Origin: Phycisphaerales bacterium
GTDB taxonomy: Bacteria; Planctomycetota; Phycisphaerae; WQYP01
Direction: 5' to 3'
NCBI GenBank assembly: GCA_027451365.1
Contig: DAIDJN010000054.1
Coordinates: 36,333-100,332, forward strand
DNA length: 64,000 bases
This document shows, one piece after another, positions 41,554 to 57,140 of the stretch. Below the pieces are notes generated by a model that saw nothing but the letters and a program-made list of their open reading frames with translations, did not search any database and was not told the DNA's origin. A program made the position numbers and the translations under genes. How positions within the stretch are numbered: the first letter of the stretch is position 1; every line of letters begins with the position of its first letter.

Positions 41554-44481
41554 TCAGCCCGTTTTCCCGGTCAGTTGCCGGACCACCGCCGCATCGCGCG
41601 CGGAAAGGTCTGGGTATTGGGCATCCGTCCCCACGTCCGGCCGGCGTTTCCACGACCGCGCACAACTGGCAAATCGTTCCCGTGTATCATGAATCGTGAT
41701 GTTCCAGATTTCACCATGCTCCACCCGATGGAAGCCGACGCCTAACGCGTCTTCCACTTCCGGGCCATACGCTCCGATGGCCGATTCCAGGCTATGGCCC
41801 GGCGGCACCACCAGTACGGCCATGGCATCCAGCGGATTGCCAAGCCCGACGGTCCGCTTCAGATTATCCAATTGTTTTAATCCGCTTTCCACCAGTGGCA
41901 TCAGAACCTGCCATGCCGCCAGAAGGGTCCGATCCGGCGCGGCAGGGGGATCGGTAAATATCTGTTCATGAATGCGCGTACCCGCGTATGCGGCCATGCC
42001 CGGCAGTTTTACGGTCGCCTGCCATGCTTCGTCGGCGGTGAAACACAAAATCGGTGCGGTCAACTGCAGAAGTTGAAGCAGTATGTGGTGGCACACGGTT
42101 TGCGATGCGCGCCGCCGCGGGCCGCTGGGCAGATCGCAATACAGGCGATCTTTGATGGCTTTGGCGTAAACCGCTGAAATATCCACATTGCAAAATTCGT
42201 ATACTGTGCGAAACACGCGATGAAAGTCGTAACTGTTATAGGCGCTGCGCACTTCCGCCGTGACGGCCGCAAGACGGCCGAGCATCCACGTATCAATGGA
42301 TTCCGGCAGCGGTGTCGCGGCGTGCTCCTGAAAGTTAAAGTCGTACAAATTGCCCAGCAGATAGCGGATCGTGTTGCGAATTTTTCGATAGGCTTCTCCG
42401 GTTCGCGCGAAAAGCTCACGCGAGCAGGGCATGTCGTTCTGGTAATCCACACTGCTGACCCACAATCGAAGGATATCCGCACCGTTTTCCTTCAGTGCGT
42501 CGGTTACTTTTATGTCGTTGCCTTCGCTTTTGGACATTTTGCGGCCATTGGCATCCACAATAAAACCGTGGGTAAGAATTTCCTTGAAGGGTGGGCCATC
42601 CCGGTAACCGGCGGCCTCAAGCAACGACGCTTGAAACCATCCTCTATGCTGATCAGACCCTTCCAGATACATATTGGCCGGATAGCCGAGTTCGGGATGT
42701 GTACCCGAAAGCACGGCCCGATGCGATGCGCCGGATTCAAACCAGACATCCAGAATATCCGCCCCTTTGCGAAGGTTCGCGGTATTCACACGATCAGCTT
42801 TTATTTGTCCGTCGGTGGTGGTGAAATCATCTTCCCATTCCTCAGCACCCAGAATGGTCCGGGGGGAATCCGTGAACCAACTGTCGGCACCGCGGGTGCG
42901 CACATAATCGGCCACATGGCGGACGGATTTTTCCGTCAGAAGAATCCGGCCATCCGGCAGAAAAAAGGAGGGAATCGGCACGCCCCAGAACCGCTGACGG
43001 GAAATGCACCAGTCGGGACGGGTTTCAAGCATTCCGGCAATGCGATTTTTGCCCCATTCCGGAATCCATTGCGTTTTTTCCACAAATTGTCTGGCGGTAT
43101 GCACCAACGGGCTGGTACTGCCGGCACGTACAAACCATTGTTCGGTCGCGCGAAGAATAGTCGGTTTACGGCAACGCCAGCAATGCGGGTAGCTGTGGTC
43201 AAAATTCTGCTTAAAAAACAACAGCCCTGTTTCGGCGAGCTTCTCTACCACTTCCTGATTGGCGTTCCAGATGGTCTGGCCGCGCAGAAATTCGGGAACG
43301 GTCTGGTCGTAGCGGCCGTCGGGCAGCACGGGACAGTAGACCTCCAGGCCGGCGCGGCGGCCGGTTAAATAATCTTCGGCGCCATGACCCGGCGCGGTAT
43401 GCACCAGGCCGGTGCCATCTTCCAGCGTAACGTAATCCGCCAACACGACCGGTGCCAGCCGGTTTATTTCCAGCGGGTGATGGTATTGCGGGTGCATGGC
43501 GCACCATTCCGCGCCGGTAATGCCGCCGGAAATCTGATAGTCAGCAATGCCGGCACGGGTCATGACCGGTTCGACGAGTTTGCGGGCCACTATGACCGCT
43601 TTCGGACCGGCCTGTTCAAAGCGAACGCAAACATATTCATGTTCCGGATGGATCGCGACGGCGCGGTTGGCGGGCAGCGTCCAGGGCGTGGTGGTCCAGA
43701 TCAGTACACTGGCGGGATTTTCCATCGCCGTCGGCGATCCCCAGGCGTCCGGCCACGCGCCCGGCACCAGATTAAATCTTACAAAAATAGACGTATCATT
43801 CCGATTGGCATATTCAAGTTCCGCCTCGGCCAGAGCGGTTTGGTCAAATGTGCACCAGTGCACCGGTTTGCGCTGGCGGAACACCAGCCCCTTGTTTAGC
43901 AAGTCCGCAAGAACATCCAGCACGCCGGCTTCATAGCGCGGGTCCAGTGTCAGATATGGCCGGTCAAACGACCCCATCACCCCCAGCCGTTCAAACGATT
44001 CGCTTTGCTGCGCGACAAATTTCAACGCATAGTCGCGGCAGCGGTGGCGAATATCGTCCGGGGAAAGTTCGCGCATTTTTGGACCTAATTGCTTTTGGAT
44101 CGCGCTTTCTATCGGCAGGCCGTGGCAGTCCCAGCCGGGCACAAAGGGAGCGTCATATCCTTCCATGGTGCGGAACTTGACCACAATATCCTTAAGCACC
44201 TTGTTGATCAGGTGGCCCATGTGAATATCGCCATTGGCGTACGGTGGCCCGTCATGCAGAACCCATTTTCCCAGCCGGTGCGGCCGGTTGCGAATCCGCT
44301 GATACAGATGTTCCGCTTTCCATGTCGCCAGTATGGCCGGTTCGCGCGCGGTGAGGTTGGCTTTCATATCAAAGGCGGTCTGTGGCAGGTTTAAGGTGGC
44401 CTTGTAATCGGCCGGTTTGGCTGCCGCCAATGGAGTTTGGCCGGGAATTGGTTGAGCGGGTTGATGTTGCGAATCGGTCAT
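41554..44481 (-). CDS. ileS: Isoleucine-tRNA ligase
   Basis: DGPPYANG, HMGH, WDCHGLP, WTTTPWT, EGSDQHRGWF and KMSKS motifs. Confidence 0.99.
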   Translation of the reverse strand: MTDSQHQPAQPIPGQTPLAAAKPADYKATLNLPQTAFDMKANLTAREPAILATWKAEHLYQRIRNRPHRLGKWVLHDGPPYANGDIHMGHLINKVLKDIVVKFRTMEGYDAPFVPGWDCHGLPIESAIQKQLGPKMRELSPDDIRHRCRDYALKFVAQQSESFERLGVMGSFDRPYLTLDPRYEAGVLDVLADLLNKGLVFRQRKPVHWCTFDQTALAEAELEYANRNDTSIFVRFNLVPGAWPDAWGSPTAMENPASVLIWTTTPWTLPANRAVAIHPEHEYVCVRFEQAGPKAVIVARKLVEPVMTRAGIADYQISGGITGAEWCAMHPQYHHPLEINRLAPVVLADYVTLEDGTGLVHTAPGHGAEDYLTGRRAGLEVYCPVLPDGRYDQTVPEFLRGQTIWNANQEVVEKLAETGLLFFKQNFDHSYPHCWRCRKPTILRATEQWFVRAGSTSPLVHTARQFVEKTQWIPEWGKNRIAGMLETRPDWCISRQRFWGVPIPSFFLPDGRILLTEKSVRHVADYVRTRGADSWFTDSPRTILGAEEWEDDFTTTDGQIKADRVNTANLRKGADILDVWFESGASHRAVLSGTHPELGYPANMYLEGSDQHRGWFQASLLEAAGYRDGPPFKEILTHGFIVDANGRKMSKSEGNDIKVTDALKENGADILRLWVSSVDYQNDMPCSRELFARTGEAYRKIRNTIRYLLGNLYDFNFQEHAATPLPESIDTWMLGRLAAVTAEVRSAYNSYDFHRVFRTVYEFCNVDISAVYAKAIKDRLYCDLPSGPRRRASQTVCHHILLQLLQLTAPILCFTADEAWQATVKLPGMAAYAGTRIHEQIFTDPPAAPDRTLLAAWQVLMPLVESGLKQLDNLKRTVGLGNPLDAMAVLVVPPGHSLESAIGAYGPEVEDALGVGFHRVEHGEIWNITIHDTRERFASCARSWKRRPDVGTDAQYPDLSARDAAVVRQLTGKTG

Positions 44482-44721
44482 AAGGAGTCGGTTGCCTCTC
44501 CAGCGGGCGCTGCACGCTGGTCATGTGAATCAGTCGGGTCGGCGGACAATCCACCGGCAGGCATGCATTGTAGCCGCCGGAGTTGTCCGCTGGCCAGTGC
44601 ATAATAATCTGCCGCCAATGGCGGTACCTTTAAATCCCCAAATTGTAAAGCAGGTCTCCAGATGGGCATCCTTCAGATGTGCAGAGCAGTTCCGGTGTAT
44701 GGGCATGCAAAAAGGCCGCGA

Positions 44722-45444
44722 TCAGTCGGTTTTCTTGAAGATCAGCAGATAATTAAATCCGCGAAGGAAAAAATTCCCTTCAATCGCGGCACTGTGCCAG
44801 TGGCTGCGGCCCAGTTTATTGTTGTGCCGCACGACGGCCACGATGTCGACCGGTTCGGCCAGGGGGCGAAGCAGGCCGAATAATTCAAAGCCGATGGGCA
44901 TGAAGGGACGGCCTTTTTTAAAGGAATCGCTCACGTACACCGCCATGTACCGGCGTGGTTTAAGAACGCGGACGCACTCGCCGAAGACCTGCTTCATGGC
45001 CATGAAGTAAGCATTTTGTCCGGACGGTTTTGGGGATTTTTCGTTGGCATCCAGTTTGCCAATGCAGCGGGGGTCGTCGGAATAATCCACATGGGTCGAA
45101 TAGGGGGGGTCTATAAACACAAAATCCACGGTGGCCGCTGCCAGCGGAATCTGCCGGCTGTCCGCCTGCTTGATATCTGCGCGGCGCGGCACCAAGTCAA
45201 ACCCCAAGCCCTTTCGCTCCAGTTCGTGTGCCACATCCAGAGTGGTGCCGCTGCCGCACATTGGGTCCATGACCGTATCATTTTCCCGGGTATAACGCTG
45301 CAGAAGGTTCCAGATGACCCATGCCGGCGTGGCACCGATATAGTCCTTGTCCCCATGCGGCTGGCGACCATAATCCTGCGAGGGATACTCCCAAAGCGTG
45401 GTGGTCTGCAGCCGGACAGGGGGTTTGGACTGGAATTTATTCAT
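44722..45444 (-). CDS. Orphan N4/N6 DNA (or RNA) methyltransferase
   Basis: DPMCGSGTT SAM-binding motif followed by IDPPY catalytic motif; no restriction gene adjacent. Confidence 0.85.
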   Translation of the reverse strand: MNKFQSKPPVRLQTTTLWEYPSQDYGRQPHGDKDYIGATPAWVIWNLLQRYTRENDTVMDPMCGSGTTLDVAHELERKGLGFDLVPRRADIKQADSRQIPLAAATVDFVFIDPPYSTHVDYSDDPRCIGKLDANEKSPKPSGQNAYFMAMKQVFGECVRVLKPRRYMAVYVSDSFKKGRPFMPIGFELFGLLRPLAEPVDIVAVVRHNNKLGRSHWHSAAIEGNFFLRGFNYLLIFKKTD

Positions 45445-45751
45445 GCGCTGAATTTTAATGCTTTATTCATCCCACGTCATCCGCCGCAGGGGGCGCGGAA
45501 ATCTGGATGTGTGTGGCAATGGTCGAAATCTGAGCTGGTGGGTCTGAATATTCAACGAACCACCCAATACCTGCATTGTTCACTGCGGAACAATTCATCA
45601 TCGCCCGAGAGACTTCCTACGAAGGTATGGCCGCCGCACGCGCCAAAACAGCCGTATACCATGCCCATGATCGGCCGGTCTTGCCCGCCCTCTGACGTAT
45701 TTGCAAACGACCCGATTAGCTTAATCCGGAGGGAACTCCGGTTCAATTTCC

Positions 45752-48700
45752 TCAATCAGGTTGGATATAGATCATGCCCTCTTGGCGTAGGAACTTCGAA
45801 ACAAGTTTTGTTTCGGAATCGCCCATATTATCCATGAGTAATGTGGCGTTGCGCAACGGCGAACCCTTGCTCATTGCGACCAGCAGGTTCCGCCGGTCCT
45901 TTTGCTCAAGGTCTGAGAATCTGTCGTAGCAGCGAAGATGCCCCGAGCCCAAAGCGATAGCCGCAGCAAGAGAGACAGACCTAATCCTATGTACCTCAAG
46001 CAGGTGCCTTAGCGAACACGATTTCAGCGCATGAATTAATTTCTCGTCATCGAGGAATAGGCATCCGGCTTCCCAGCCGATACCGGTCCCATCGCAACTG
46101 TCACATTTCGTGTAGCGGAAACCGTCTTTAAGGCGAGCCCGAAAAGGTTCTTTAATGGCCCCGAAAACCTCATAAACAGAATCATGTATGCCCCTCCATA
46201 AATAATGGTCCTGCACACGATCAATTCGTTTAGCCAGCGGCTTCGAAAACCGACGCCACGGAATTCCGTGCTCAAACATTCTCCTAGTGCGCCGGTCCAT
46301 TAGCTCCAAGGGCTGAAGAAAATTCGCCACGAGCTGCGAAGCGTAGAACTTTGCCTCTGGTATGAGTCGGACATGACGTAAAGCGCGTATTGCAGCCAAT
46401 ACCTCTGGTTGCCAAAACCGATCGTCATCAATGGTCTTTCCTGCATCAGCTACGACCAGCCCAATTGGATAGGTTGCCAGCATTCCGTTACCATGGCAAA
46501 CCGAACAGCGGCCATTTATGGAACGGCAGTCGCCAATGTGCGCATCATTAAATTGAACGCCGAACGCACCGCCCTCCTCATTTGTCTGCAAAAATCGGGT
46601 GCTGATCACGCGACCCTCGTCGGGGCCCTCGAACAGTCGGGTGACGCCTTGGCTCCAACGCAATGCAATCTGCCGAGTTGCAGAACTTGCTCTAGACGAA
46701 CAAACAACCCAACCATTAAAAATCACGGCCTGGGAATTAAGCAGTGACCTGAATCGTTTTAACGGGTGGGTCCGGCCTTGAAACCAAACCAACTCAAGCC
46801 CGCATCGGAGGAGTCGGCGGGCCGCTTCTGCCCAATCGCTCGGCGTGGCTAGGCCCAGTCGCCGTTGGAGCGAAACTGGTGAAAAGCCGAACGATCGACC
46901 ATCTAATTCCCTCTCGACGTCGCTCATGTGCGCGACGGCAACGATCTCATCTGGCAATTTAGGCTGGACGAGTGGCCGGATGGCGGGAAGTAGGTCGAGT
47001 AACTCAACCACGCGGGTGTCCGCAGGCACGCGGTCAGTGTGTACCGCGATGGCAGGTAAGAGCGGCCGGTGAATATCATCGTCGGCGGTGAGCTCGGAAA
47101 GTCCGATTAATTTCTCAAAGGCGGTGGCTTGAGAAGCCCAATTCAGACCACGATCAATCTTACCGGCGACGGTCGGCGGCGTCCTCCTTATTTTACTTGC
47201 CTTAGCGTCGGTGATCTCTCCGCGCAGCAATTGCGCTGTCGGTGTGTCTGCTCGCGGCAATTCCTCAGGCGGACCCTGGAAAATCACTTTCCCTCCCTTA
47301 GCGCCGCCGGCGGGGCCAAACTCGATTATCCAATCGGATTCCCTGATAAGGTCAATTTTATGCTCGATTGCAACTAATGTATGGCCGGCCGATGCGGCGT
47401 GCCGAGATAATCGTCGAAATACCCATTGGGCGTCAATTGCACTTAGCCCCGCGGTCGGCTCGTCTAGCACGAGTAATCCGGCCCCTATCTCACCACTGAC
47501 CCTGCCTAGGTACCTGACCAGCCCCAACCGTTGCCGCTCGCCTGCAGAGAGAGTTGGAGTCGCCCGAGATAATTGAAGGTAACCCAGTCCAAGATCGACG
47601 GCTATTCGCAGGAGCGACAAGGCGGCAGAATTGATGGCTATGTGACCGCGACTCGCAAGGTCGGAAATAGTCTTGTCCAACAATTCAGCAATGGAGTCGT
47701 TCCCCAAACGAATCAATTGTGAACGCTCTGAAAGACGCCTTCCCGCACAGGCGTGGCAAGTCTCGTCGAGATCGTTTCCAAAACCATCTCTGGCGACGCC
47801 CGCCCCTTCGCAGGCAGGACATGCGCCGCGAGAATTAAATGAAAAATCCGACGCTCCGAGGCCGATCGCTTCACAAGCATCCTGAGAAGCAAATCGATTT
47901 CGAATCGCATCAAGTATTCCCAAGTGAGTAGCAACAACGCTGCGACGAGACTTGCTCCCCAATTTCTGCGCGACGACCTCCACAAAATGCAACGACCTTG
48001 GAATATGCAACCGCCCGTTATGCCATTCGACACCATCGATTAATGCCTTTGTTGCCGGAACAAGTCCGCCGAGAATGGCCGATGACTTCCCCGCGCCCGA
48101 CACTCCGACAACTAGGGTTAACCGATTCATCGGTATCTGGAACGTGGCACGCTTCACGTTGTTTACCGTTAACCCAGAAAGCCTAATCCATTGCCCATTG
48201 GGTTTAAGGGGTTCGACTGCCCGCGACCCAAGAAGCTTGGCGGGGGTACCGTGGCTTTCTGAACGCGGGGGGCCTTGGTAGACTACGCTACCGCCCCCGT
48301 CGCCACCGCACGGTCCCATGTCGACAAGCTCATCCACGGACTTCAATAGCAGCGGATGGTGCTCGACCATTAACACCGTGTTACGCTCCGCCAGTCGCCC
48401 AATAGCCGTGGCCAGCTGTCGAACATCTTTTGTGTGGAGAGCACGAGATGGCTCGTCAAGGAGATAACAGCAATCTTGTAAATCAACTGCCATAGCGACG
48501 GCCAATCGAATACGTTGCGCCTCACCACCGCTCAATGAGCTGGTAGTTCGCCCTAGCGTCAAATATCCGAGATTTAGGTCAACACAGGTGTGGACCAGTG
48601 AACCAACGGCTGCTAGGGCTGCTAGCTCTTTCCCACGCGATGTTGCCTTCCACCTTGCGACATTATCACACAATTCACTTAAGGCAGTTTTCAGCAAGAT

Positions 48701-49990
48701 GCCCGAGATGTTGATGCCGCGATAATAGCATGCGCGGGCGGATCGGTTAAGCCGGGTTCCGCCGCACTCCGGGCAATTCGCTTCGTTTACAAGCCCGGAA
48801 AGGGCGTCCCTCGCTGCACCAGCCGAAGCCACCCTAGCCTTGACCAACTCAACCAGGCCAGCAAACGGTCGTCTCGCCGGTCGCAGACGGTCATCTGAAG
48901 CGTGAAGTTCGGGGACGGGATCTTGCCCGGATCCATATAGAATTATGTTCCGAACCCCTTGGGGGATCGCCCGCCAGGCTGCGTCCAAGGGGAGATTATT
49001 GACACGCAATAGGCCGCGCAATACACAATCAAGCGAGGCTAGATGCCTAAAACGCCCCTCCGATTTGGGCAAGTTTAATCCATCATTAAGAATCGGGCGG
49101 TCTAAATGGCGAATAATTGATTGCTCGCTGACCCCCATTCGCACCCCCATACCCTCACAGCTTCGACAGCGCCCAGTCCCAATTGCCAGCGAATTGAAGG
49201 AAAGCAACCTAGGGCTCAAGGGGAGGTAAGAATAAGGCACGTCAGGAGCAACCTGATTGAACCCGCCCTCCAAAAAAATATGACCATCAATAATCCAAAG
49301 CAAACCACCGCTAGCTCGCCCAACGATTTTGCGCGCACTCGCCAAGTTTCGAATCTCGACAGACTTCTTGACGCTCGCGACCCAGAGCCTAGCCGGCAAA
49401 TCTTTTTGGGGGATGGCCTCATCGGGTGCTGCCCTCCAAAATCCGTTTCGCTCGCGGTAAAACATGGCTTTTGGGGGGAGAAGTTGACGGGGGTGCCTTA
49501 TCTCTGCGTCAGGATGCACTTCTGCGATCGAGACGGTCGAGCCCTTGTAATGACGCACCAGCCATGCGGCCATATCGATCCGGTCAGGTGAAACGATGGC
49601 CTCACCCCCCGGCGATAGCATAATCCCGTGCTGACAGACCAGTTGCGCGAGGGCGTCCATGACGCCCGAATAGGTCGCGACGGTAGAACGGCTCTGGCCG
49701 CGCAGAGGTTCCTGTTGAACGTCAATGCAGGTGGGCAAATTCGCGATCCCACATACGTCCGGCCCATACGCACGGGCGAGGCTCGATGGCAATAATCGCA
49801 ACCGCCCCAGTCTCCGCGCGCCAACTGCTCCGATCACATGGTGGACTAACGACGACTTTCCCGAACCGGATGCTCCGGCAATGCCAACCAATCGGTGCAG
49901 AGGAAGATTCAGAGAAACGCTTTTCAGGTTATTTTGCGACGCGCATTCGATGCGAATTGCCTGGTCCGCCTTGTCTACTGCTCCGCCCAT
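45752..49990 (-). CDS. Divergent, extended UvrA-like ABC ATPase (two ABC modules plus a degenerate third Zn-finger module)
   Basis: NBD1: GASGSGKSS, LSGGE, LLDEPS, VEHH. NBD2: GVSGAGKSS, LSAGE, VLDEPT, IEHK. CxxC pairs CRSC, CPEC, CPAC and CHAC, plus C-terminal CSVC and CDSC. GAGGAG RBS before ATG 49990. Confidence 0.88.
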   Translation of the reverse strand: MGGAVDKADQAIRIECASQNNLKSVSLNLPLHRLVGIAGASGSGKSSLVHHVIGAVGARRLGRLRLLPSSLARAYGPDVCGIANLPTCIDVQQEPLRGQSRSTVATYSGVMDALAQLVCQHGIMLSPGGEAIVSPDRIDMAAWLVRHYKGSTVSIAEVHPDAEIRHPRQLLPPKAMFYRERNGFWRAAPDEAIPQKDLPARLWVASVKKSVEIRNLASARKIVGRASGGLLWIIDGHIFLEGGFNQVAPDVPYSYLPLSPRLLSFNSLAIGTGRCRSCEGMGVRMGVSEQSIIRHLDRPILNDGLNLPKSEGRFRHLASLDCVLRGLLRVNNLPLDAAWRAIPQGVRNIILYGSGQDPVPELHASDDRLRPARRPFAGLVELVKARVASAGAARDALSGLVNEANCPECGGTRLNRSARACYYRGINISGILLKTALSELCDNVARWKATSRGKELAALAAVGSLVHTCVDLNLGYLTLGRTTSSLSGGEAQRIRLAVAMAVDLQDCCYLLDEPSRALHTKDVRQLATAIGRLAERNTVLMVEHHPLLLKSVDELVDMGPCGGDGGGSVVYQGPPRSESHGTPAKLLGSRAVEPLKPNGQWIRLSGLTVNNVKRATFQIPMNRLTLVVGVSGAGKSSAILGGLVPATKALIDGVEWHNGRLHIPRSLHFVEVVAQKLGSKSRRSVVATHLGILDAIRNRFASQDACEAIGLGASDFSFNSRGACPACEGAGVARDGFGNDLDETCHACAGRRLSERSQLIRLGNDSIAELLDKTISDLASRGHIAINSAALSLLRIAVDLGLGYLQLSRATPTLSAGERQRLGLVRYLGRVSGEIGAGLLVLDEPTAGLSAIDAQWVFRRLSRHAASAGHTLVAIEHKIDLIRESDWIIEFGPAGGAKGGKVIFQGPPEELPRADTPTAQLLRGEITDAKASKIRRTPPTVAGKIDRGLNWASQATAFEKLIGLSELTADDDIHRPLLPAIAVHTDRVPADTRVVELLDLLPAIRPLVQPKLPDEIVAVAHMSDVERELDGRSFGFSPVSLQRRLGLATPSDWAEAARRLLRCGLELVWFQGRTHPLKRFRSLLNSQAVIFNGWVVCSSRASSATRQIALRWSQGVTRLFEGPDEGRVISTRFLQTNEEGGAFGVQFNDAHIGDCRSINGRCSVCHGNGMLATYPIGLVVADAGKTIDDDRFWQPEVLAAIRALRHVRLIPEAKFYASQLVANFLQPLELMDRRTRRMFEHGIPWRRFSKPLAKRIDRVQDHYLWRGIHDSVYEVFGAIKEPFRARLKDGFRYTKCDSCDGTGIGWEAGCLFLDDEKLIHALKSCSLRHLLEVHRIRSVSLAAAIALGSGHLRCYDRFSDLEQKDRRNLLVAMSKGSPLRNATLLMDNMGDSETKLVSKFLRQEGMIYIQPD

Positions 49991-50091
49991 TTTCTCCTCA
50001 CGATCTATCAAGTTTTATTCTGGCTGCCTCCGCAGGCGCTTCGCAAACCAAATTCGTATATGTACGCAACAGGTCGCCCAATGGGCACGAT

Positions 50092-50817
50092 TTACCTTGT
50101 TCGATGTTCGCCCTCAGTCGCGGCGCGCCATTCCGAGTCCCGCCGAAAATAAAAAAGCATTTTATGATCGTGGGTAGTATGCACGAGACGTGACAAACTC
50201 TGCGCACGACGAGGCGTGAACTCTGGATGATAGATGTTGAAATAATCAACCGGTAACCTTTTAAGCCCGACCTCAAAGCCAGCATCGTAGAATATTTTTG
50301 CAACCTCATCGAGTGACCGGTCGTGAACGCGACAGCCTTCTTTAATCAGAAGCTCGCGTCGATGCGGCCACAGCGGATTTTCAATATGGCATCCCATCGT
50401 GGCGTAATACTCGCCCTTCTCCTTCATGACCCTGTACATCGTACCCGCTAGGGAATGCAGATCTTCAATCATCCAGAAAACCTCCTGGCTAAAAGCCAGA
50501 TCGAAGAACTCAGATAGGCCAGCAAGGGCGGACGGATAATCGTATTCGATTGGCTCGTCATTCCTTCGATTCGTTTTCGCCTGTTCAATTAGGTCGGGCG
50601 CGATGTCTACCCCGAGCCCGCGACGAAACGGACGCATACTGTGAAAAAGGCGAAGAAATGCCCCGTTCCCGCATCCATAATCGAGAACAACTTCATTTCC
50701 CGTGTGAGGTGGAATTACCTCTCGAACCATCGCGGTCCAAAAGGTGATATTTCCCCCAGCAATGCCGATGTCGTAGGCTTGGTATAAGTGCCAATCTGGC
50801 CGCATAGTCCCTGACAT
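50092..50817 (-). CDS. Class I SAM-dependent methyltransferase
   Basis: VLDYGCGNG, GVDIA, FDLAFSQEV and GCHIENPLW motifs; AGGA RBS before ATG 50817. Confidence 0.92.
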   Translation of the reverse strand: MSGTMRPDWHLYQAYDIGIAGGNITFWTAMVREVIPPHTGNEVVLDYGCGNGAFLRLFHSMRPFRRGLGVDIAPDLIEQAKTNRRNDEPIEYDYPSALAGLSEFFDLAFSQEVFWMIEDLHSLAGTMYRVMKEKGEYYATMGCHIENPLWPHRRELLIKEGCRVHDRSLDEVAKIFYDAGFEVGLKRLPVDYFNIYHPEFTPRRAQSLSRLVHTTHDHKMLFYFRRDSEWRAATEGEHRTR

Positions 50818-50830
50818 ATAACGTCCTGTT

Positions 50831-51682
50831 TCAGTGCGCGAATGCAAAAAGCATTTGTCGTCCTACGGTGGTCCCGTCTAGGAATACTTCGACGCTGCAA
50901 CGATCCCTGCCATGTACGACTCGGTGGTTGTTCAGGATTGTTACGCAGCCTGCCGCTATTGGTAATATGTTCACGTTTTCTCGAGTCAATCGCTCGAATA
51001 TTCGCATAGTTGCGGATTGTTCGGTACTCGGCGGTCGGCCTCGGTGCTTGAAACCCTGCGCGATCCTAGACCGATGATACCGAACTAGAACTCCGCCGTC
51101 GACTGTGGGGGTGATGATAGGGCTCTCAAACACCTCAATTTCGTCCTTAATATTTCTGGCGGCGAAGGGAAGGACAACGGTTTTAAACTTCACAACATCG
51201 TCGGAGCTTTCCAATCCGAAGCAAATGGACTCGACATCAGAAACGACGAGCGAACCGAGGTTGGCATAGCTATCCGACCGCAGGCACAGTGACATTGTCA
51301 ATCTTGGGGGGCGAGCAATCATGCTGTAATCGGTGTGAAGGGGAAGGGAACGAATTTGATTGCCCATTAGGTGCTGCCCTGGGCGAACGCGAGCGGGGAT
51401 TACCGCCCCTGCCTCCGATGGATCGATCAATACGGATCCCAGAAGCGTCACGAGCCCCAAGAACAATGTCTCCAAATGCGATGGCGGAAACCCGGAAATT
51501 TGAATAAAACCCTGCTCATCAAGGATGGCTTGTGCCACCTCGGACACGACACAGAGCGGCCGGCAGGATTCAGCCGCTTGGCGGACGGCGTCGAGCTCAA
51601 GGGCGCTTTTTGGAAAATTAGAAACCAGATAATTTGCAGCCGAATAAAGGGCACCACGAAGATCTTCGCCAATTAGAAGCAT
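50831..51682 (-). CDS. TauD/TfdA (clavaminate synthase-like) Fe(II)/2-oxoglutarate dioxygenase
   Basis: PLHTD (HxD) and ILNNHRVVHGR facial-triad motifs. Confidence 0.88.
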   Translation of the reverse strand: MLLIGEDLRGALYSAANYLVSNFPKSALELDAVRQAAESCRPLCVVSEVAQAILDEQGFIQISGFPPSHLETLFLGLVTLLGSVLIDPSEAGAVIPARVRPGQHLMGNQIRSLPLHTDYSMIARPPRLTMSLCLRSDSYANLGSLVVSDVESICFGLESSDDVVKFKTVVLPFAARNIKDEIEVFESPIITPTVDGGVLVRYHRSRIAQGFKHRGRPPSTEQSATMRIFERLTRENVNILPIAAGCVTILNNHRVVHGRDRCSVEVFLDGTTVGRQMLFAFAH

Positions 51683-51706
51683 TTCTCAGTTCTCGTCATC
51701 GGGTGG

Positions 51707-52123
51707 TCAGCGGCAATCCTTCGTTGAGCATCTGTGAGCGGGGCCGATCATCGGTTCACCGAATTCGCGCAGCCAAAGAGCTTTGGTCTGTTCCCAGCCA
51801 TCTTGGTTAGCCTTTCGGTCTTCATCGCCCTTCAAACCGAAATAGGGATCATGGTGCAAATAGCTGCCGAACAGTCGATTGCAGTCCTCGATGTACTTCC
51901 GAGTGTCCAAAATGTGGTAATGCCAAACCAGATCGACCATTGCACTCGGTACGAGAACTGCGGAAGGATTTCGCTGCCGCAGCGTCAAAAATTGTCGGTA
52001 GACGCGTTCGGCCACGTCGTAGTCGATCAACTCACCGCCGAGCATCTCGTTTTCGCTTTTCATCTTGAAGAAAATCGGGGATAGATCTACCTCGACGAGA
52101 GCGACAGCGGGTTGCAAAAGCAT
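51707..52123 (-). CDS. GRDP/DUF1399-like ('glycine-rich domain-containing') small protein with Cys-containing C-terminal tail
   Basis: YRQFL.L, VPSAMVDLVWHYHILDTRKY..DC...FG.YLHHDP motif; tail HRCSTKDCR; GGAGG RBS. Confidence 0.8.
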   Translation of the reverse strand: MLLQPAVALVEVDLSPIFFKMKSENEMLGGELIDYDVAERVYRQFLTLRQRNPSAVLVPSAMVDLVWHYHILDTRKYIEDCNRLFGSYLHHDPYFGLKGDEDRKANQDGWEQTKALWLREFGEPMIGPAHRCSTKDCR

Positions 52124-52678
52124 AGTAACCTCCAGCGTTCAACGACCATCGGGAAATCTGTCGAACCTACGAAAAATTTCCTGCCGATAATCTCATTTTC
52201 TGCATTGTATTACTACGAGAGTCGGCGGTCAAGATATCGATAATCGGCCCGAGAAGGAAAAATCCACCCAGGACCACGTCGATTGCTTGAAGTTTAATAT
52301 CCACATTTGTGCGTTTCTCGTGCGGTGCCGCGCGACTAGCTGCTTTTTCATCGAATTCCTCTGGCGCGGTGCGAGTGCTAATCTTAACCCACATTTATTT
52401 TTGCCCCAGCCTCCCCCTGCGTTCTCTGCGGCGAATAAAACTTCGCCAATAGATGAATACTTGGGGCAATAGCCTGTTAAATCAGGGGTGTGCGGTGCGT
52501 TGTGCCCTTGCGGATTAGCCTATTGAGTCCTTTCGCGGCTTGCCGGTTGGCGCAGTGCGGTGAAGGGAAGGAAAATCCTTGGGATCGTCGGCTGCCGGAG
52601 GAAGGCCCGCCACGGCTCGGGGCCGGTCGAAATCTGTTGATGCTGGTTAAATCCCTTGAAAAAGGCGACCGGTGACCT

Positions 52679-52707
52679 TCCCCGGATATTCAGTCCCCGG
52701 ATATTCA
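52679..52707. repeat. Tandem direct repeat TCCCCGGATATTCA x2 (1-bp spacer)
   Basis: Copies at 52679-52692 and 52694-52707. Confidence 0.8.
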
Positions 52708-52767
52708 AGCGTGTATTGTCTTGGACCCGCTGGAAAATATCGGATTCCAGTTGCGGTTGATTCTGGT

Positions 52768-53163
52768 TCACGGATTGACCACGGCTGCGGCAATCTGCTC
52801 AATAACAGTGATGTTCCTTACGAGTTCCGGCATCAAGCCATAGCGGTCCCGAAGATACTCCGTGCTGTTGTAGCTCACCCGTGTGCTCCCATACTCATCT
52901 TCCGCGACAAGTATTTTTAATGGAAGATCGATTGCACAGTCAGGAGAAGCGATCATCAGCGGCGTGCCCGCCTTCGGGTTGCCGAAGATGACCAGTTTGG
53001 TATCGCGCATATGGATGCCAACTTTGGCTGCTTCGCCGCTATGGTCAACGACGGCAATCACGGTTACGGCCTTCGCCCGCAGGATCGATAGCAGACGCTC
53101 CAGCACCTCGCTGACGCTGCGCGTGCTGCTTAAATGCACGATTCCATTACTCCCTGTCGACAT
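52768..53163 (-). CDS. DUF302 domain protein
   Basis: VDHSGEA, LVIFGNPKAGTPLM and DLPLKILV motifs. Confidence 0.9.
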   Translation of the reverse strand: MSTGSNGIVHLSSTRSVSEVLERLLSILRAKAVTVIAVVDHSGEAAKVGIHMRDTKLVIFGNPKAGTPLMIASPDCAIDLPLKILVAEDEYGSTRVSYNSTEYLRDRYGLMPELVRNITVIEQIAAAVVNP

Positions 53164-53385
53164 GTTCTTTTCCTCTATTGATTCAATGATCGCTGGACGA
53201 GCAATTCAGCCATATGGTCGGGCTGCGCAGCTTCGCGAAGAACGACACAGTATTGCGGCGGTAACCCTGCTGGATACATTCGTCTCAACATAGACGTTTA
53301 CCACGTGATAATCCTATCACAATCCGCCGGGAGGCGGAAGCGCAGAGGCAATGGAATGTAACCATTTGACCATTATTCATAGGCA

Positions 53386-53844
53386 TTGAGCTATATACAA
53401 CCACATATTATATGCATAAGCGTCGGCGGCTGGTTCGGCGAGTTTGCGGCAGAATCCGATGGCCAGTGGCACCCGAATCGGCGGATCGGTCAATTGAATC
53501 TGCCCGAGCGTTTCCCGGCAACGTCTTTGGATATGGATCCAGCATGTCTGACGATTGCAGGCGTTACAGCCGTCGGTTACCAGAGCGCTGTCAAATTCAT
53601 GGCCCAAGAGATGCGCCGCGCGATCGTCCGTCATCGCGTAGTGGCACTGCGCGGGATACTGATGATCGTGAAACGCCATCCTCATCCGGATGGTGGACTT
53701 TCATTCCAAATTTGGCCATTCGTGCTTTTAAGAGACAATCAAAACCCGGCAGCACCACTATGCGTCGGCTCATGGCTTGAAAATCTCATATACCAGAACA
53801 CCCTGACGCTTGATTCCACTCCCCACAACATTGATTTCGCATGA
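53386..53844 (+). CDS. Hypothetical protein
   Basis: Longest ORF in the gap; no recognisable motif. Confidence 0.3.
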   Translation: MSYIQPHIICISVGGWFGEFAAESDGQWHPNRRIGQLNLPERFPATSLDMDPACLTIAGVTAVGYQSAVKFMAQEMRRAIVRHRVVALRGILMIVKRHPHPDGGLSFQIWPFVLLRDNQNPAAPLCVGSWLENLIYQNTLTLDSTPHNIDFA

Positions 53845-54182
53845 CCGTTGGATAACCGCCGGGCCAACCGTTAATAAAATCATGCGGATACTCACAATTC
53901 GCCGGGGCGCTCCAGAGTTCGGTCACAACAGTTATGGGAGGGTCGGCAAAGAATCTTGATGTTTCCAGGCATATCTTTCGCGAGGTAATCTTCCTGAAAT
54001 GTTGCTGTGGCAAAGCACAGGTGACAATTTCGATGAATACTGGAAAACTTCCGCAATCCCACGGCTTATATCGGCCGGGATATGGTAACGATTGAACACC
54101 CTGCGGCGCGGGCGGACAAAATCGGCTGGTACCCTCCGCCGGCGATCGGGCAGTGGTTCTGATTGTGTTGTAACGCCAGCGA

Positions 54183-57140
54183 TTACTTGGCATCCAGCCA
54201 GTTGTCGGCCCAGCCCATTTCCACTTTAATCGGAACGGACAGGGTAATTGCCGTTTCCATCTGGTGCGCGACGGTTGCGGCATATTGTTCAACAAGGTTG
54301 CGGCGGCATTCAAAGACCAGTTCATCGTGCACCTGCATAATCAGGCGAATGTCATCGCGCTTGCCGCTCAGTGCACGATCAATATTGACCATAGCTTGTT
54401 TAATAAGATCGGCCGCGGAGCCTTGAACAACAGTATTCACCGCGGCGCGCTGGCCAAACTGCCGCACGGATTGATTGGTGGAATGAATTTCCGGAATATT
54501 CCTCTGGCGGCCCAGAATGGTTTTGACAAATCCGTGCAGCATGGCGTCTTGAACGCACTGCTGTGAAAACGCGTCGATTCTGGGAAAGCGGGCCTTGTAG
54601 GCATTAATAAACACCTCGGCTTCGTGCCGGGGAATTTTTAATACCTGGGCCAGACCAAATGCGGTTTGCCCGTAAATAATGCCAAAATTCACAGTTTTGG
54701 CCAGACGCCGCATGTCGGATGTGACATCTTGAGGATTGACGTGGTAAATCTGCGTGGCCACGAACTGGTGAATGTCCTGGTCGGCGGCGAATGCCGCAAG
54801 CAGGGCCGGCTCCTGACAGAAATGGGCAAATACGCGAAGTTCAATCTGGGAATAATCGGCCGCCAGCAAAACCCAGTCCGCATTTTGCGCCACAAACGCC
54901 CGGCGGATTTCCCGGCCCATGGCGGTGCGTATCGGAATATTCTGCAGGTTCGGGTCGCTGCTGGAAAGCCGCCCGGTTTCCGCCACCGTCTGGTTAAAAC
55001 TGGTATGCACACGTCCTGTGCGCGGCGACACCTGATGTGCAAGTGCATCTATATAAGTGCTTTTTAACTTTCCCATCTGCCGGTATTCCAGAATCAGCGC
55101 TGGTACCGGATGTTTGTCCGCCAAAGCTTCCAGAACATCCACATCCGTACTGGGACCGGTTTTTGTTTTCTTAATGACCGGCAAACCCAGCTTCGTGAAA
55201 AGAATCACCGCCAGTTGCCTGGGGGAATCCGGATTGAACGTTTCGCCGGCAGCGGAAAGAATCTGCCCATGAAGGGCCACCAGCCGGGCTTCCACTTCTT
55301 TGGCAAGGGCGCCCAGCAGGCCGGTATCCACTTTAACACCAAAAAATTCCATATCCGCCAGAATCGCCATGATCGGCATTTCAAGTTCAAAATAAAGCTT
55401 GTCGAATTTCTGTTCGCTTATCCGCGGAAGCAGGTATCTGGCCAGGCGAAAAGTGACGTCGGCATCTTCCGCTGAATAGCTGGCGGCCATAGGAAGAGGC
55501 ACCTGCGAAAAACTGAGCTGATTGGCGCCTTTTCCGATTAAATCAGATATGGGAATGGGGCGCAAGCCCAGGAAATCCGCGGCCATGGCATCCATGGAAT
55601 GGCTTCGCCGCGCCGCATCCAGCACATAACCGGCCACCATCGTATCCAACAGGGGACCAGCCAATTCAATGCCGCAGTTGCGCAGAACGTTCAGATCATA
55701 TTTGAGATTCTGACCTACTTTAATAATGCTTTGGTCAGCCAGAATCGGCCCAAGTGCCGTTCGCACCTGGGCGATGGTCAGGCAATCACCAAGCCCTGCA
55801 ACGGGCAGATACCAGGCAAGCCCCTCCCGGGCGCAAAGGGAAATGCCGCAGAGATTCGATCGCATCGCTCCCAGGGCGTCGGTTTCCGTATCCACGGCCA
55901 GCCAGCGGTCCGGTGAATCAGCCAGAATTCTCTGCAAATCGTTCACCATTTCCGTCAGAAGTTGCGGCGTGTTGATCAGCCGATAGTCGCCCTGCACAGG
56001 CAGCAGGTCAGCCGCGGGCCCGGAGGGCGCGGCTGCCGGCGCTGCCATCGGCGCGGGTGCCGTTGAAACCGCGGAAATATCCGCCTTTAACGGCAAACCT
56101 CGCGCTTCGGCCGGTGGCGACAGGCTGTCTTCGGTGGGCTGATTGAATAAATTAAATCCGCCATCCGACGGGGCCTTATCGCCCGCTATGTGCCCGGGTG
56201 CGGCGGACGCAGGGGCTGCCGTGACCGCGGAAAGCGGCGCAAGAGAACGGTCCAAAGCCTGGGCAACCTGCGGCAGCAGGGGCTGCAGACGGTTGAAATC
56301 CAGTTCTTGAAACACCGGTGCAAGGCACTGGAGCCGGCGGGCCTGCGGCCGCATTTTTTCCAGCGGCACATCCAGGGGCAGGTCATCAAGCAGGCGAACC
56401 AGTTGACGGGACTTTGCCAGCACCGGCAGGTTGTCGCGCAGGGCTTGGCCCACCTTGCCGGGAATGTCAGCCGCGTGCGCCAGCAGGTTATCCAGATTGC
56501 CATACTGGCTGATCCATTTGGCGGCGGTTTTCGGTCCCACACCGGGGATGCCGGGAATATTGTCCGCGGTGTCACCGGTCAGGGCCAGCACATCGCAGGC
56601 CTGCCGCGGAGAATAGCCCTTTTTCTGCAACAGGGCGGCGGCATCCACGGTTTCAGCGGTCTGAATGTCATACAGGAACACATGGTCGCAAATAAGCTGA
56701 TCCAGGTCTTTATCACGTGAACAAATGTATATATTTATTTTTGAATTGCCGGTTCCGGCCGCATCGGCGGTGAGCCTCCGGACCAGCGTGGCAATCACGT
56801 CATCCGCTTCGCAGCCATCTATGCGCAGAATGGGAATTTCCAGAATCGACACGATCTGGCAGATGCGCTCAATCTGTCGGGGCATGTCTTCGGGCATCGG
56901 CTTGCGCTGGGCTTTGTACTGGGAATCAATCTGATCGCGATTGGAACTCCCCGCGTCCATAGCCAGAGCAATATAATCCGGCCGGCGGTTTTGCAGCAGT
57001 TTGAACAGGGCGGAAACGAATCCAAAAGTCGCGTTGGTCGGTTCACCCGTGCGGCTGGTCAGTCCGCTCATGGCGTGATACGCACGGTAAATCTGGGCAT
57101 GTCCGTCGATTACATATAGATTCTGGACCATGGCGGACAT
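54183..57140 (-). CDS. polA: DNA polymerase I
   Basis: 5'-3' exonuclease (IDGH, EADD, GDTADNIPG), 3'-5' exonuclease (VDTET, NLKYD) and polymerase motifs (TGRLSSSDPNLQNIP, DYSQIELR, QVHDELVFE). Confidence 0.99.
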   Translation of the reverse strand: MSAMVQNLYVIDGHAQIYRAYHAMSGLTSRTGEPTNATFGFVSALFKLLQNRRPDYIALAMDAGSSNRDQIDSQYKAQRKPMPEDMPRQIERICQIVSILEIPILRIDGCEADDVIATLVRRLTADAAGTGNSKINIYICSRDKDLDQLICDHVFLYDIQTAETVDAAALLQKKGYSPRQACDVLALTGDTADNIPGIPGVGPKTAAKWISQYGNLDNLLAHAADIPGKVGQALRDNLPVLAKSRQLVRLLDDLPLDVPLEKMRPQARRLQCLAPVFQELDFNRLQPLLPQVAQALDRSLAPLSAVTAAPASAAPGHIAGDKAPSDGGFNLFNQPTEDSLSPPAEARGLPLKADISAVSTAPAPMAAPAAAPSGPAADLLPVQGDYRLINTPQLLTEMVNDLQRILADSPDRWLAVDTETDALGAMRSNLCGISLCAREGLAWYLPVAGLGDCLTIAQVRTALGPILADQSIIKVGQNLKYDLNVLRNCGIELAGPLLDTMVAGYVLDAARRSHSMDAMAADFLGLRPIPISDLIGKGANQLSFSQVPLPMAASYSAEDADVTFRLARYLLPRISEQKFDKLYFELEMPIMAILADMEFFGVKVDTGLLGALAKEVEARLVALHGQILSAAGETFNPDSPRQLAVILFTKLGLPVIKKTKTGPSTDVDVLEALADKHPVPALILEYRQMGKLKSTYIDALAHQVSPRTGRVHTSFNQTVAETGRLSSSDPNLQNIPIRTAMGREIRRAFVAQNADWVLLAADYSQIELRVFAHFCQEPALLAAFAADQDIHQFVATQIYHVNPQDVTSDMRRLAKTVNFGIIYGQTAFGLAQVLKIPRHEAEVFINAYKARFPRIDAFSQQCVQDAMLHGFVKTILGRQRNIPEIHSTNQSVRQFGQRAAVNTVVQGSAADLIKQAMVNIDRALSGKRDDIRLIMQVHDELVFECRRNLVEQYAATVAHQMETAITLSVPIKVEMGWADNWLDAK

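Follow-up and report, generated by a model that had tools for sequence, protein, structure and literature searches.

Among the described systems closest to the locus considered here are the Ecm16, DrrC and UvrA2 proteins, which are likewise extra UvrA paralogues standing beside tailoring enzymes. Double-length UvrA proteins (PRK00635 type) carry an internal duplication of the UvrA unit, and such forms, of about 1,800-1,900 aa, are seen in the phylum of our host. On the peptide side, borosins and BURP-domain cyclases are self-modifying or fused-precursor RiPPs; together with the TIGR04222 proteins, which have been proposed as MNIO substrates (PMC12452194), they share a Cys-rich candidate core that is joined to the C-terminal side of a folded domain. 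For Ecm16, it is the insertion domain that sets drug specificity (PMC10192343). The Lanthiphage clusters are presented as sources of intracellular anti-phage lanthipeptides that lie near defence systems and usually have no exporter (bioRxiv 10.1101/2024.06.26.600839).

The locus analysed here, part of a 64,000-nucleotide stretch of DNA from a Phycisphaerales bacterium (the window), encodes a GRDP-like protein, a TauD-family oxygenase, a methyltransferase (MTase) and a UvrA-like ATPase, and its list of parts is similar to that of a tailoring cluster to which a UvrA-like protein has been added. Two intact ABC sites, Zn modules 2 and 3, an insertion domain and the loss of Zn module 1 are common to its ATPase and to Ecm16, DrrC and UvrA2, but no NRPS or PKS is found near the cassette. 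The analogy with DrrC and Ecm16 that the first-pass annotation had drawn is a partial one, the cassette ATPase keeping a region of the length of the UvrB-binding domain and carrying a third module of 480 aa. We rejected an assignment to the Ecm16/DrrC-type UvrA2 proteins, which lack the UvrB-binding domain and measure about 750-850 aa, since the ATPase is collinear with full-length UvrA and 1412 aa long; it may nevertheless work like Ecm16, though it is not of the Ecm16 type. Like the double-length proteins, it contains an internal duplication, but only of the first half and without Walker A/B, and it falls in a clade apart from the double-UvrA halves. The GRDP protein shares with borosins, BURP-domain cyclases and TIGR04222 proteins the folded domain followed by a Cys-rich candidate core, but the domain is a different one, there is no MNIO gene, and the partners are TauD, MTase and UvrA-like proteins. 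It is not a TIGR04222 Cys-tailed membrane protein, as it matches none of the NCBIfam families at E 0.01, its top 19-residue hydropathy is 1.5 and it has no strongly hydrophobic segment. The cassette as read below would resemble the Lanthiphage clusters in being a small intracellular peptide-modification cluster; it differs by having no LanB or LanC, a folded-domain precursor candidate and a predicted DNA-scanning ATPase. We found no description of the GRDP and UvrA combination, of the 1.5x UvrA or of UCP032817 in the main texts of the open-access literature, and the papers listed for DUF1399/PF07173 concern, by title, plants, fungi and plant-microbe relations (soybean in the case of PF07173), with no bacterial biochemistry. 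The candidate precursor type appears to be undescribed, and so does the architecture of the UvrA-like ATPase.

Gene content and boundaries of the insertion

The four ORFs are intact and co-oriented on the minus strand (Table 1), and the identities read from their translations in the first pass are supported by Pfam. The same annotation had described a tight operon with gaps of 24, 13 and about 100 bp and three clear ribosome-binding sites, which agrees well with what we measured: the intergenic gaps are 24, 13 and 101 bp, and RBS-like motifs precede the genes for GRDP (GGAGG), MTase (AGGA) and the UvrA-like ATPase (GAGGAG), with no clear RBS-like site upstream of the TauD gene. Six sigma70-like sites were found against 4.4 expected by chance, the best of which is listed in Table 1. 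The impression of a CTAG-rich segment unlike the host was also borne out, the 6,372-bp segment containing 18 CTAG tetramers against a mean of 1.45 in genome windows of equal size. This count is reached by one of 1,215 genome windows (which include the cassette region), and no window is as atypical as the cassette segment when scored with an order-3 Markov model; the GC content of 0.54 is unremarkable next to 0.55 for the genome. The four cassette genes are foreign to the host.

Table 1. Features of the cassette and of the insertion that carries it, in positions of the window
Feature	Coordinates	Strand	Evidence
GRDP-like/UCP032817-like protein, 138 aa	51707..52123	-	PF07173
TauD-family Fe(II)/2-oxoglutarate oxygenase, 283 aa, H116-x-D118...H257	50831..51682	-	PF02668
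Class I SAM-dependent methyltransferase (MTase), 241 aa	50092..50817	-	class I methyltransferase Pfam families
UvrA-like ATPase ("1.5x UvrA"), 1412 aa	45752..49990	-	ABC and UvrA DNA-binding domains (Pfam)
Sigma70-like promoter candidate	52204..52232	-	10 of 12 consensus positions, spacer of 17 nt; identified by consensus alone
Direct repeat of 12 bp at the left boundary of the insertion	45521..45532	.	metagenome junction contigs; identical 12-mer
Right 12-bp direct repeat bounding the insertion	52625..52636	.	metagenome junction contigs; identical 12-mer
Degenerate repeat, right end	52460..52624	.	recurs elsewhere in the genome at about 70% identity

The true element extends from 45521 to 52636, the inserted DNA measuring 7,104 bp and having the 12-bp direct repeat at either end. 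When positions 43500-55500 were compared with four public metagenome runs from a single study, contigs from three of the four joined 45520 directly to 52625, with 12 letters at the junction that fit both sides, and one run contained this empty form together with low-depth pieces of the cassette. A close GRDP match was detected in none of 60 relatives, among them 36 of the same family (one weak match occurs in another family), and the neighbouring DNA-methylase gene is present in the four relatives tested, so that this flanking gene is host DNA. Taken together, the empty site, the lack of a close GRDP protein in relatives and the host origin of the methylase flank favour gain over loss. We found no integrase inside the 7,104-bp insertion, no terminal inverted repeats at its ends and no tRNA in the window, and none of 12 other loci that we checked contains the 12-mer; the degenerate repeat at the right end is possibly a decayed mobile-element remnant. 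In one further genome (G001) the left flank is kept, and its contig gives no right flank.

Conservation of the gene set and of the cysteine tail

Scans with the GRDP alignment yielded 133 loci, 21 of which have the Cx4C-R tail, a class enriched by design because one of the two scan patterns included the tail. All 10 of these with more than 4 kb of downstream sequence encode TauD, MTase and UvrA-like proteins, nine in the gene order of the cassette and one as a set of six genes that also includes PhyH and another MTase. In the 11 on short contigs an oxygenase gene comes next in 10 and the last contig ends 14 bp past GRDP. As L056/L057 and L005/L059/L060 are close kin, these loci represent about seven independent cases. 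Among the named hosts are Gemmatales, Thermogutta, Chthoniobacterales and Achromatium; in the genome of the last, the long ATPase is encoded at the beginning of a different contig. The cultured Azospirillum ramasamyi carries a six-gene version on plasmid NZ_CP029836.1, made up of GRDP, MTase, TauD, a 1397-aa UvrA-like gene, MTase and PhyH; L064 and L146 are the loci with an additional PhyH and second MTase. At L107, where the Cys tail is different, GRDP and TauD are accompanied by a radical SAM/SPASM protein instead of the MTase and by a 1198-aa UvrA-like gene. Indirect support comes from a by-eye comparison in which 9 of 13 UvrA-like database matches apparently share an assembly with a TauD match. 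The kinase, pentapeptide and PhyH genes of related loci are absent from the window. The first-pass annotation had treated the four genes as one unit, and the set does occur together in several lineages: it is a conserved mobile cassette. Among the 112 GRDP loci with other tails, many of them on short contigs, one has a UvrA-like gene; since most GRDP loci are without it, the link to DNA is specific to the Cx4C-R branch.

The GRDP protein matches PF07173 at 29.3 bits (cut-off 22.7) and has a precomputed match to PF27765 (UCP032817-like). Its model is a helical domain that is confident over residues 4-130 (mean pLDDT 86), with low values for the last six residues. In 43 homologues gathered without any tail pattern, D64, W67, H68, H70, D73, H90 and H91 are invariant, as is the tail C132-x3-D136-C137-R138 (43 of 43), whereas the linker before it varies; in A. 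ramasamyi the terminal Arg is replaced by Pro. A Foldseek search with the model gave no matches at E 0.001, VIA-align reached a best Z of 3.3 over 48,161 chains, and the GRDP profile had no match among PDB sequences, but such empty searches do not make the fold new.

Beyond these close homologues, GRDP proteins have a constant domain and a variable tail. Of 123 distinct GRDP ORFs, 116 retain the His/Asp motif, tail-less ones included, and at least two Cys lie within the last 30 residues of 86 of the 123. Tails of the CWHxC type pair with another TauD clade, which is the upstream neighbour in 28 loci and is fused to GRDP in two; L100 has repeated short Cys cores, and in L080 the GRDP domain and tail are fused to a Hint-like domain. 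Two plasmid loci encode a free Cys peptide of 42-44 aa, followed by a tail-less GRDP and a membrane protein (MATE-like in one of them), and the two peptides have a Cys-containing end in common; upstream of the cassette GRDPs, no small peptide ORF is conserved. Throughout the GRDP family, the type of tail goes with the set of partner enzymes, as in RiPP pathways, and we read the family-wide variation of these sequences as the probable logic of a precursor and its enzymes. The candidate RiPP precursor of the cassette is the folded 138-aa domain with its invariant tail, which adjoins the tailoring enzymes. Some counter-points should be mentioned: the invariant Cys could simply bind a metal in a stable protein, L107 and A. 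ramasamyi have deviating tails, and MTase relatives exist without GRDP.

The UvrA-like ATPase and the tailoring enzymes

The host has a canonical uvrA of its own on contig C5 and uvrB on C73, so that the cassette gene is not the only uvrA of the genome. With TIGR00630 the cassette ATPase scores 495 bits, below the cut-off of 729.8, compared with 1347 for the C5 protein. PF17760 was detected neither in the whole ATPase nor in its residues of about 110-250, although the C5 control gave it at E 5e-35, and Zn module 1 is lost, its cysteines being replaced; on these grounds we rejected a canonical UvrA identity. Over residues 12-923 the protein can be aligned collinearly with full-length UvrA, and this part retains both Walker A/B sets as well as Zn modules 2 and 3; both ABC sites and these two Zn modules are invariant in 48 family members. 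The third module (residues of about 931-1412, some 480 aa) is homologous to the N-terminal half (hhalign 96.9%, E 1.5e-10) and degenerate: its Cys pairs are conserved and it contains an insertion domain, the second of the protein, but it lacks Walker A/B and an intact signature. Judged from its motifs, the ATPase is a full-length UvrA with a putatively dead third module and a second, predicted DNA-binding insertion domain.

When 1.84 billion representatives were searched with a profile, 150 proteins (clusters at 50% identity) were listed, 60 of which have the 1.5x layout as assigned by a motif rule, and among these listed matches Zn module 1 is lacking in 49 of the 60. The 11 cassette ATPases form one clade (SH-aLRT 100) apart from the canonical, the double-UvrA and the 750-800 aa plasmid UvrA2-type rows in a quick tree of 39 rows, a placement that is tentative because of long branches. 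The cassette protein thus does not group with canonical UvrA in this tree, in keeping with the divergence claimed for it at first reading. The tree was built from a first version of 46 rows by dropping 11 that were mis-split or redundant and adding four, and Ecm16 and DrrC are not among its rows. Searches for new 1.5x UvrA proteins that did not use GRDP as bait gave none in 400 genomes of the host phylum and none in three 400-genome samples, two of them overlapping, in which two candidates were scored per genome. Among third-module queries of a plasmid collection, two had no match and the third matched only itself.

The oxygenase matches PF02668 at 35.3 bits (cut-off 27), and H116 and D118 of its HxD...H triad are invariant, with H257 conserved in more than 90% of sequences. 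At E 0.1, no PDB entry matches its sequence; its model (pLDDT 94; best Foldseek matches at E 4e-16) is closest in fold to clavaminate synthase, AsnO, KDO1, OrfP and VioC (TM about 0.7-0.8). The fold and triad are common to it and the clavaminate synthase, AsnO and VioC hydroxylases, from which it differs in sequence (14-19% identity). Clavaminate-synthase-like oxygenases act mostly on free amino acids or small molecules, and the predicted fold fits hydroxylation of Asp, Asn or Arg and, equally well, a free amino acid as substrate. A complex prediction for TauD, GRDP and iron returned a score of 0.01 ("no answer") and counts neither way. The MTase is the most conserved cassette gene, with 65-74% identity in close loci; its Pfam matches are to class I families acting on small molecules, with none to a DNA methylase, and relatives at 35% identity occur without GRDP, near iron or nickel uptake genes in two of four plasmid loci that we read.

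Possible functions of the cassette

The explanation that we place first, though tentatively, is that the cassette is an intracellular RiPP-like, DNA-directed defence pathway. The oxygenase and MTase would modify the Cys-x3-Asp-Cys-Arg tail of GRDP, whose His-rich domain may be a metal-binding scaffold or a self-modifying enzyme carrying its own core peptide. The oxygenase would hydroxylate a tail residue, with Asp136 or Arg138 as the obvious candidates, and the MTase would then methylate it. The product may bind or lesion DNA, its most plausible role being to defend the cell chemically against phages and other mobile DNA. Its dedicated partner would be the 1.5x UvrA, scanning DNA in a probably UvrB-independent manner and using the two insertion domains to recognize DNA with bound product, which it would clear from the host chromosome. 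The suggestion of a RiPP-like cluster made in the first pass thus survives in part: the invariant Cys tail, the correlation of tails with partners and the TauD-GRDP fusions speak for it, but no exporter or protease, of the kind that is common though not universal in RiPP clusters, is encoded among the four insertion genes or conserved among the neighbours, and an intracellular product therefore fits better than a secreted antibiotic. The Lanthiphage lanthipeptides are a precedent for such a product. Defence-type neighbours are present in four of nine contexts scanned (L002, L060, L062 and L146) and absent from the other five (L001, L003, L056, L059 and L107), these being raw counts.

It is tempting to go further and to regard GRDP/DUF1399 as an unrecognised metal-dependent enzyme that modifies peptides, either its own Cys tail or a Cys peptide encoded separately, with the cassette as its DNA-targeting branch, a new RiPP class serving as an intracellular chemical immunity that is read or cleared by a new three-module UvrA class, but we consider this reading unlikely. 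The cassette is a compact four-gene entry point to two unexplained protein families, the GRDP/DUF1399 domain and the three-module UvrA. If the intracellular RiPP-like reading is true, it would add a precursor type missed by current mining rules and tie peptide modification to DNA surveillance; the plasmid carrier A. ramasamyi (NZ_CP029836.1) and the natural empty-site population give direct experimental access.

Alternatively, and in our view somewhat improbably, the cassette may serve a small-molecule pathway in which GRDP is a metalloenzyme with the Cys tail as metal ligand or lid, the oxygenase and MTase help to turn a free amino acid (Arg, Asn or Asp) into a metabolite that is genotoxic or binds metal, and self-resistance comes from the 1.5x UvrA. 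The modelled oxygenase fold, nearest to free amino-acid hydroxylases, would suit such a pathway, as would the His/Asp motif kept even in tail-less GRDPs and the MTase relatives near metallophore and metal ABC genes; uvrA-like genes are, moreover, said to mark DNA-intercalator clusters (PMC10413001). Against it, the tail looks more like a substrate than like a ligand loop, changing with the partner set, repeating in tandem and existing as a separate peptide gene, and the missing exporter is a further difficulty.

It is likewise unlikely that the cassette makes no product and serves for protection alone. Here the ATPase would detect bulky DNA adducts or binders made elsewhere, the oxygenase and MTase would inactivate the agent, and GRDP would be a metal or redox sensor. 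The mobile and patchy cassette, its lack of exporter and protease and the abundance of stand-alone UvrA-like genes on plasmids (788 records match the N-terminal part) are consistent with this, but the invariant tail, the swap of MTase for radical SAM/SPASM and the pairing of tails with enzymes are left unexplained. Least probable is a DNA-modification defence, with the ATPase scanning for phage DNA that lacks a mark placed on host DNA by the oxygenase and MTase. Although restriction-modification or other defence genes neighbour the four contexts named above and a convergent Ser/Thr kinase follows the cassette in three independent loci, the best structural matches of the oxygenase are not of the TET or AlkB types, the MTase is of no DNA-methylase family, no nuclease is encoded, and the PADLOC matches to mad2, mad3 and mad8 are non-specific, a housekeeping UvrA scoring higher (E 2.5e-100 against 8.7e-49) and unrelated MTases matching alike. 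The MADS anti-phage system itself was rejected as an identity, as these matches are partial and the cassette has four genes against an eight-gene operon. Elsewhere, three distant GRDP matches lie in viral contigs, and the GRDP/DUF1399 domain, which has no solved fold, ranges from bacteria to plants.

Host DNA next to the insertion

The orphan N6/N4 DNA-methylase-family gene next to the cassette-bearing insertion is a host gene located beyond it, and is found at 72-83% identity in 4/4 relatives. On the other side, the stretch that separates the insertion from polA also occurs in metagenome contigs lacking the insertion; apart from its DUF302 gene, it comprises ~1 kb in which no gene is evident and whose sequence is mildly atypical.

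Features in the window and in related GRDP loci (L-numbers) of other genomes and plasmids
Locus	Coordinates	Feature
Window	44722-45444	Orphan N6/N4 DNA-methylase-family gene, adjoins ileS
Window	52637-54180	Insertion-to-polA stretch
Window	52768-53163	DUF302 gene
L080	56-970	Hint-like autoprocessing domain (weak Pfam matches) fused to GRDP domain and Cys tail
L100	48-1660	Two GRDP ORFs; many short tandem Cys-containing repeats
L145	5733-7721	Tail-less GRDP, upstream 42-44 aa peptide, downstream membrane protein
L147	4894-8613	As L145
L002	16197-17060	286-aa Ser/Thr kinase gene, convergent with cassette 3' end
L003	15588-16448	As L002
L056	16290-17150	As L002
L005	429-2177	Pentapeptide-repeat gene flanking cassette
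L059	7716-9476	As L005
L062	7940-9823	As L005
L064	8427-8879	As L005

Variant GRDP architectures

Autoprocessing by the Hint-like domain of L080 would release the C-terminus of the Cys tail. The repeats of L100 resemble multi-core precursors. Four further loci (L072, L074, L075, L077) encode tandem GRDP-tail-GRDP-tail proteins with two differing Cys tails, adjoined by TauD in three. The plasmid arrangement of L145 and L147 is a candidate separate RiPP cluster with GRDP working in trans. Its peptide, which was found again on 8 Pseudomonas plasmid records, ends in a Gly-rich His-Cys-Gln...Trp sequence in both loci. The L147 membrane protein weakly matches MATE, and luxR/luxI genes precede the Halomonas copy.

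Cassette neighbours and MADS profiles

The convergent kinase loci represent three independent cases; the 64-kb window lacks this gene. Pentapeptide repeats, a repeat type that can mimic DNA, are encoded beside four cassettes. Although labelled Comamonadaceae, L005 carries a cassette almost identical to those of L059 and L060, possibly through misbinning or recent transfer; sulfatase-like genes surround the latter two. Finally, the PADLOC profiles PDLC04135 (mad3; E 2.5e-100) and PDLC04140 (mad8; E 8e-37) strongly match housekeeping UvrA and can therefore yield false signals of MADS, an anti-phage system.
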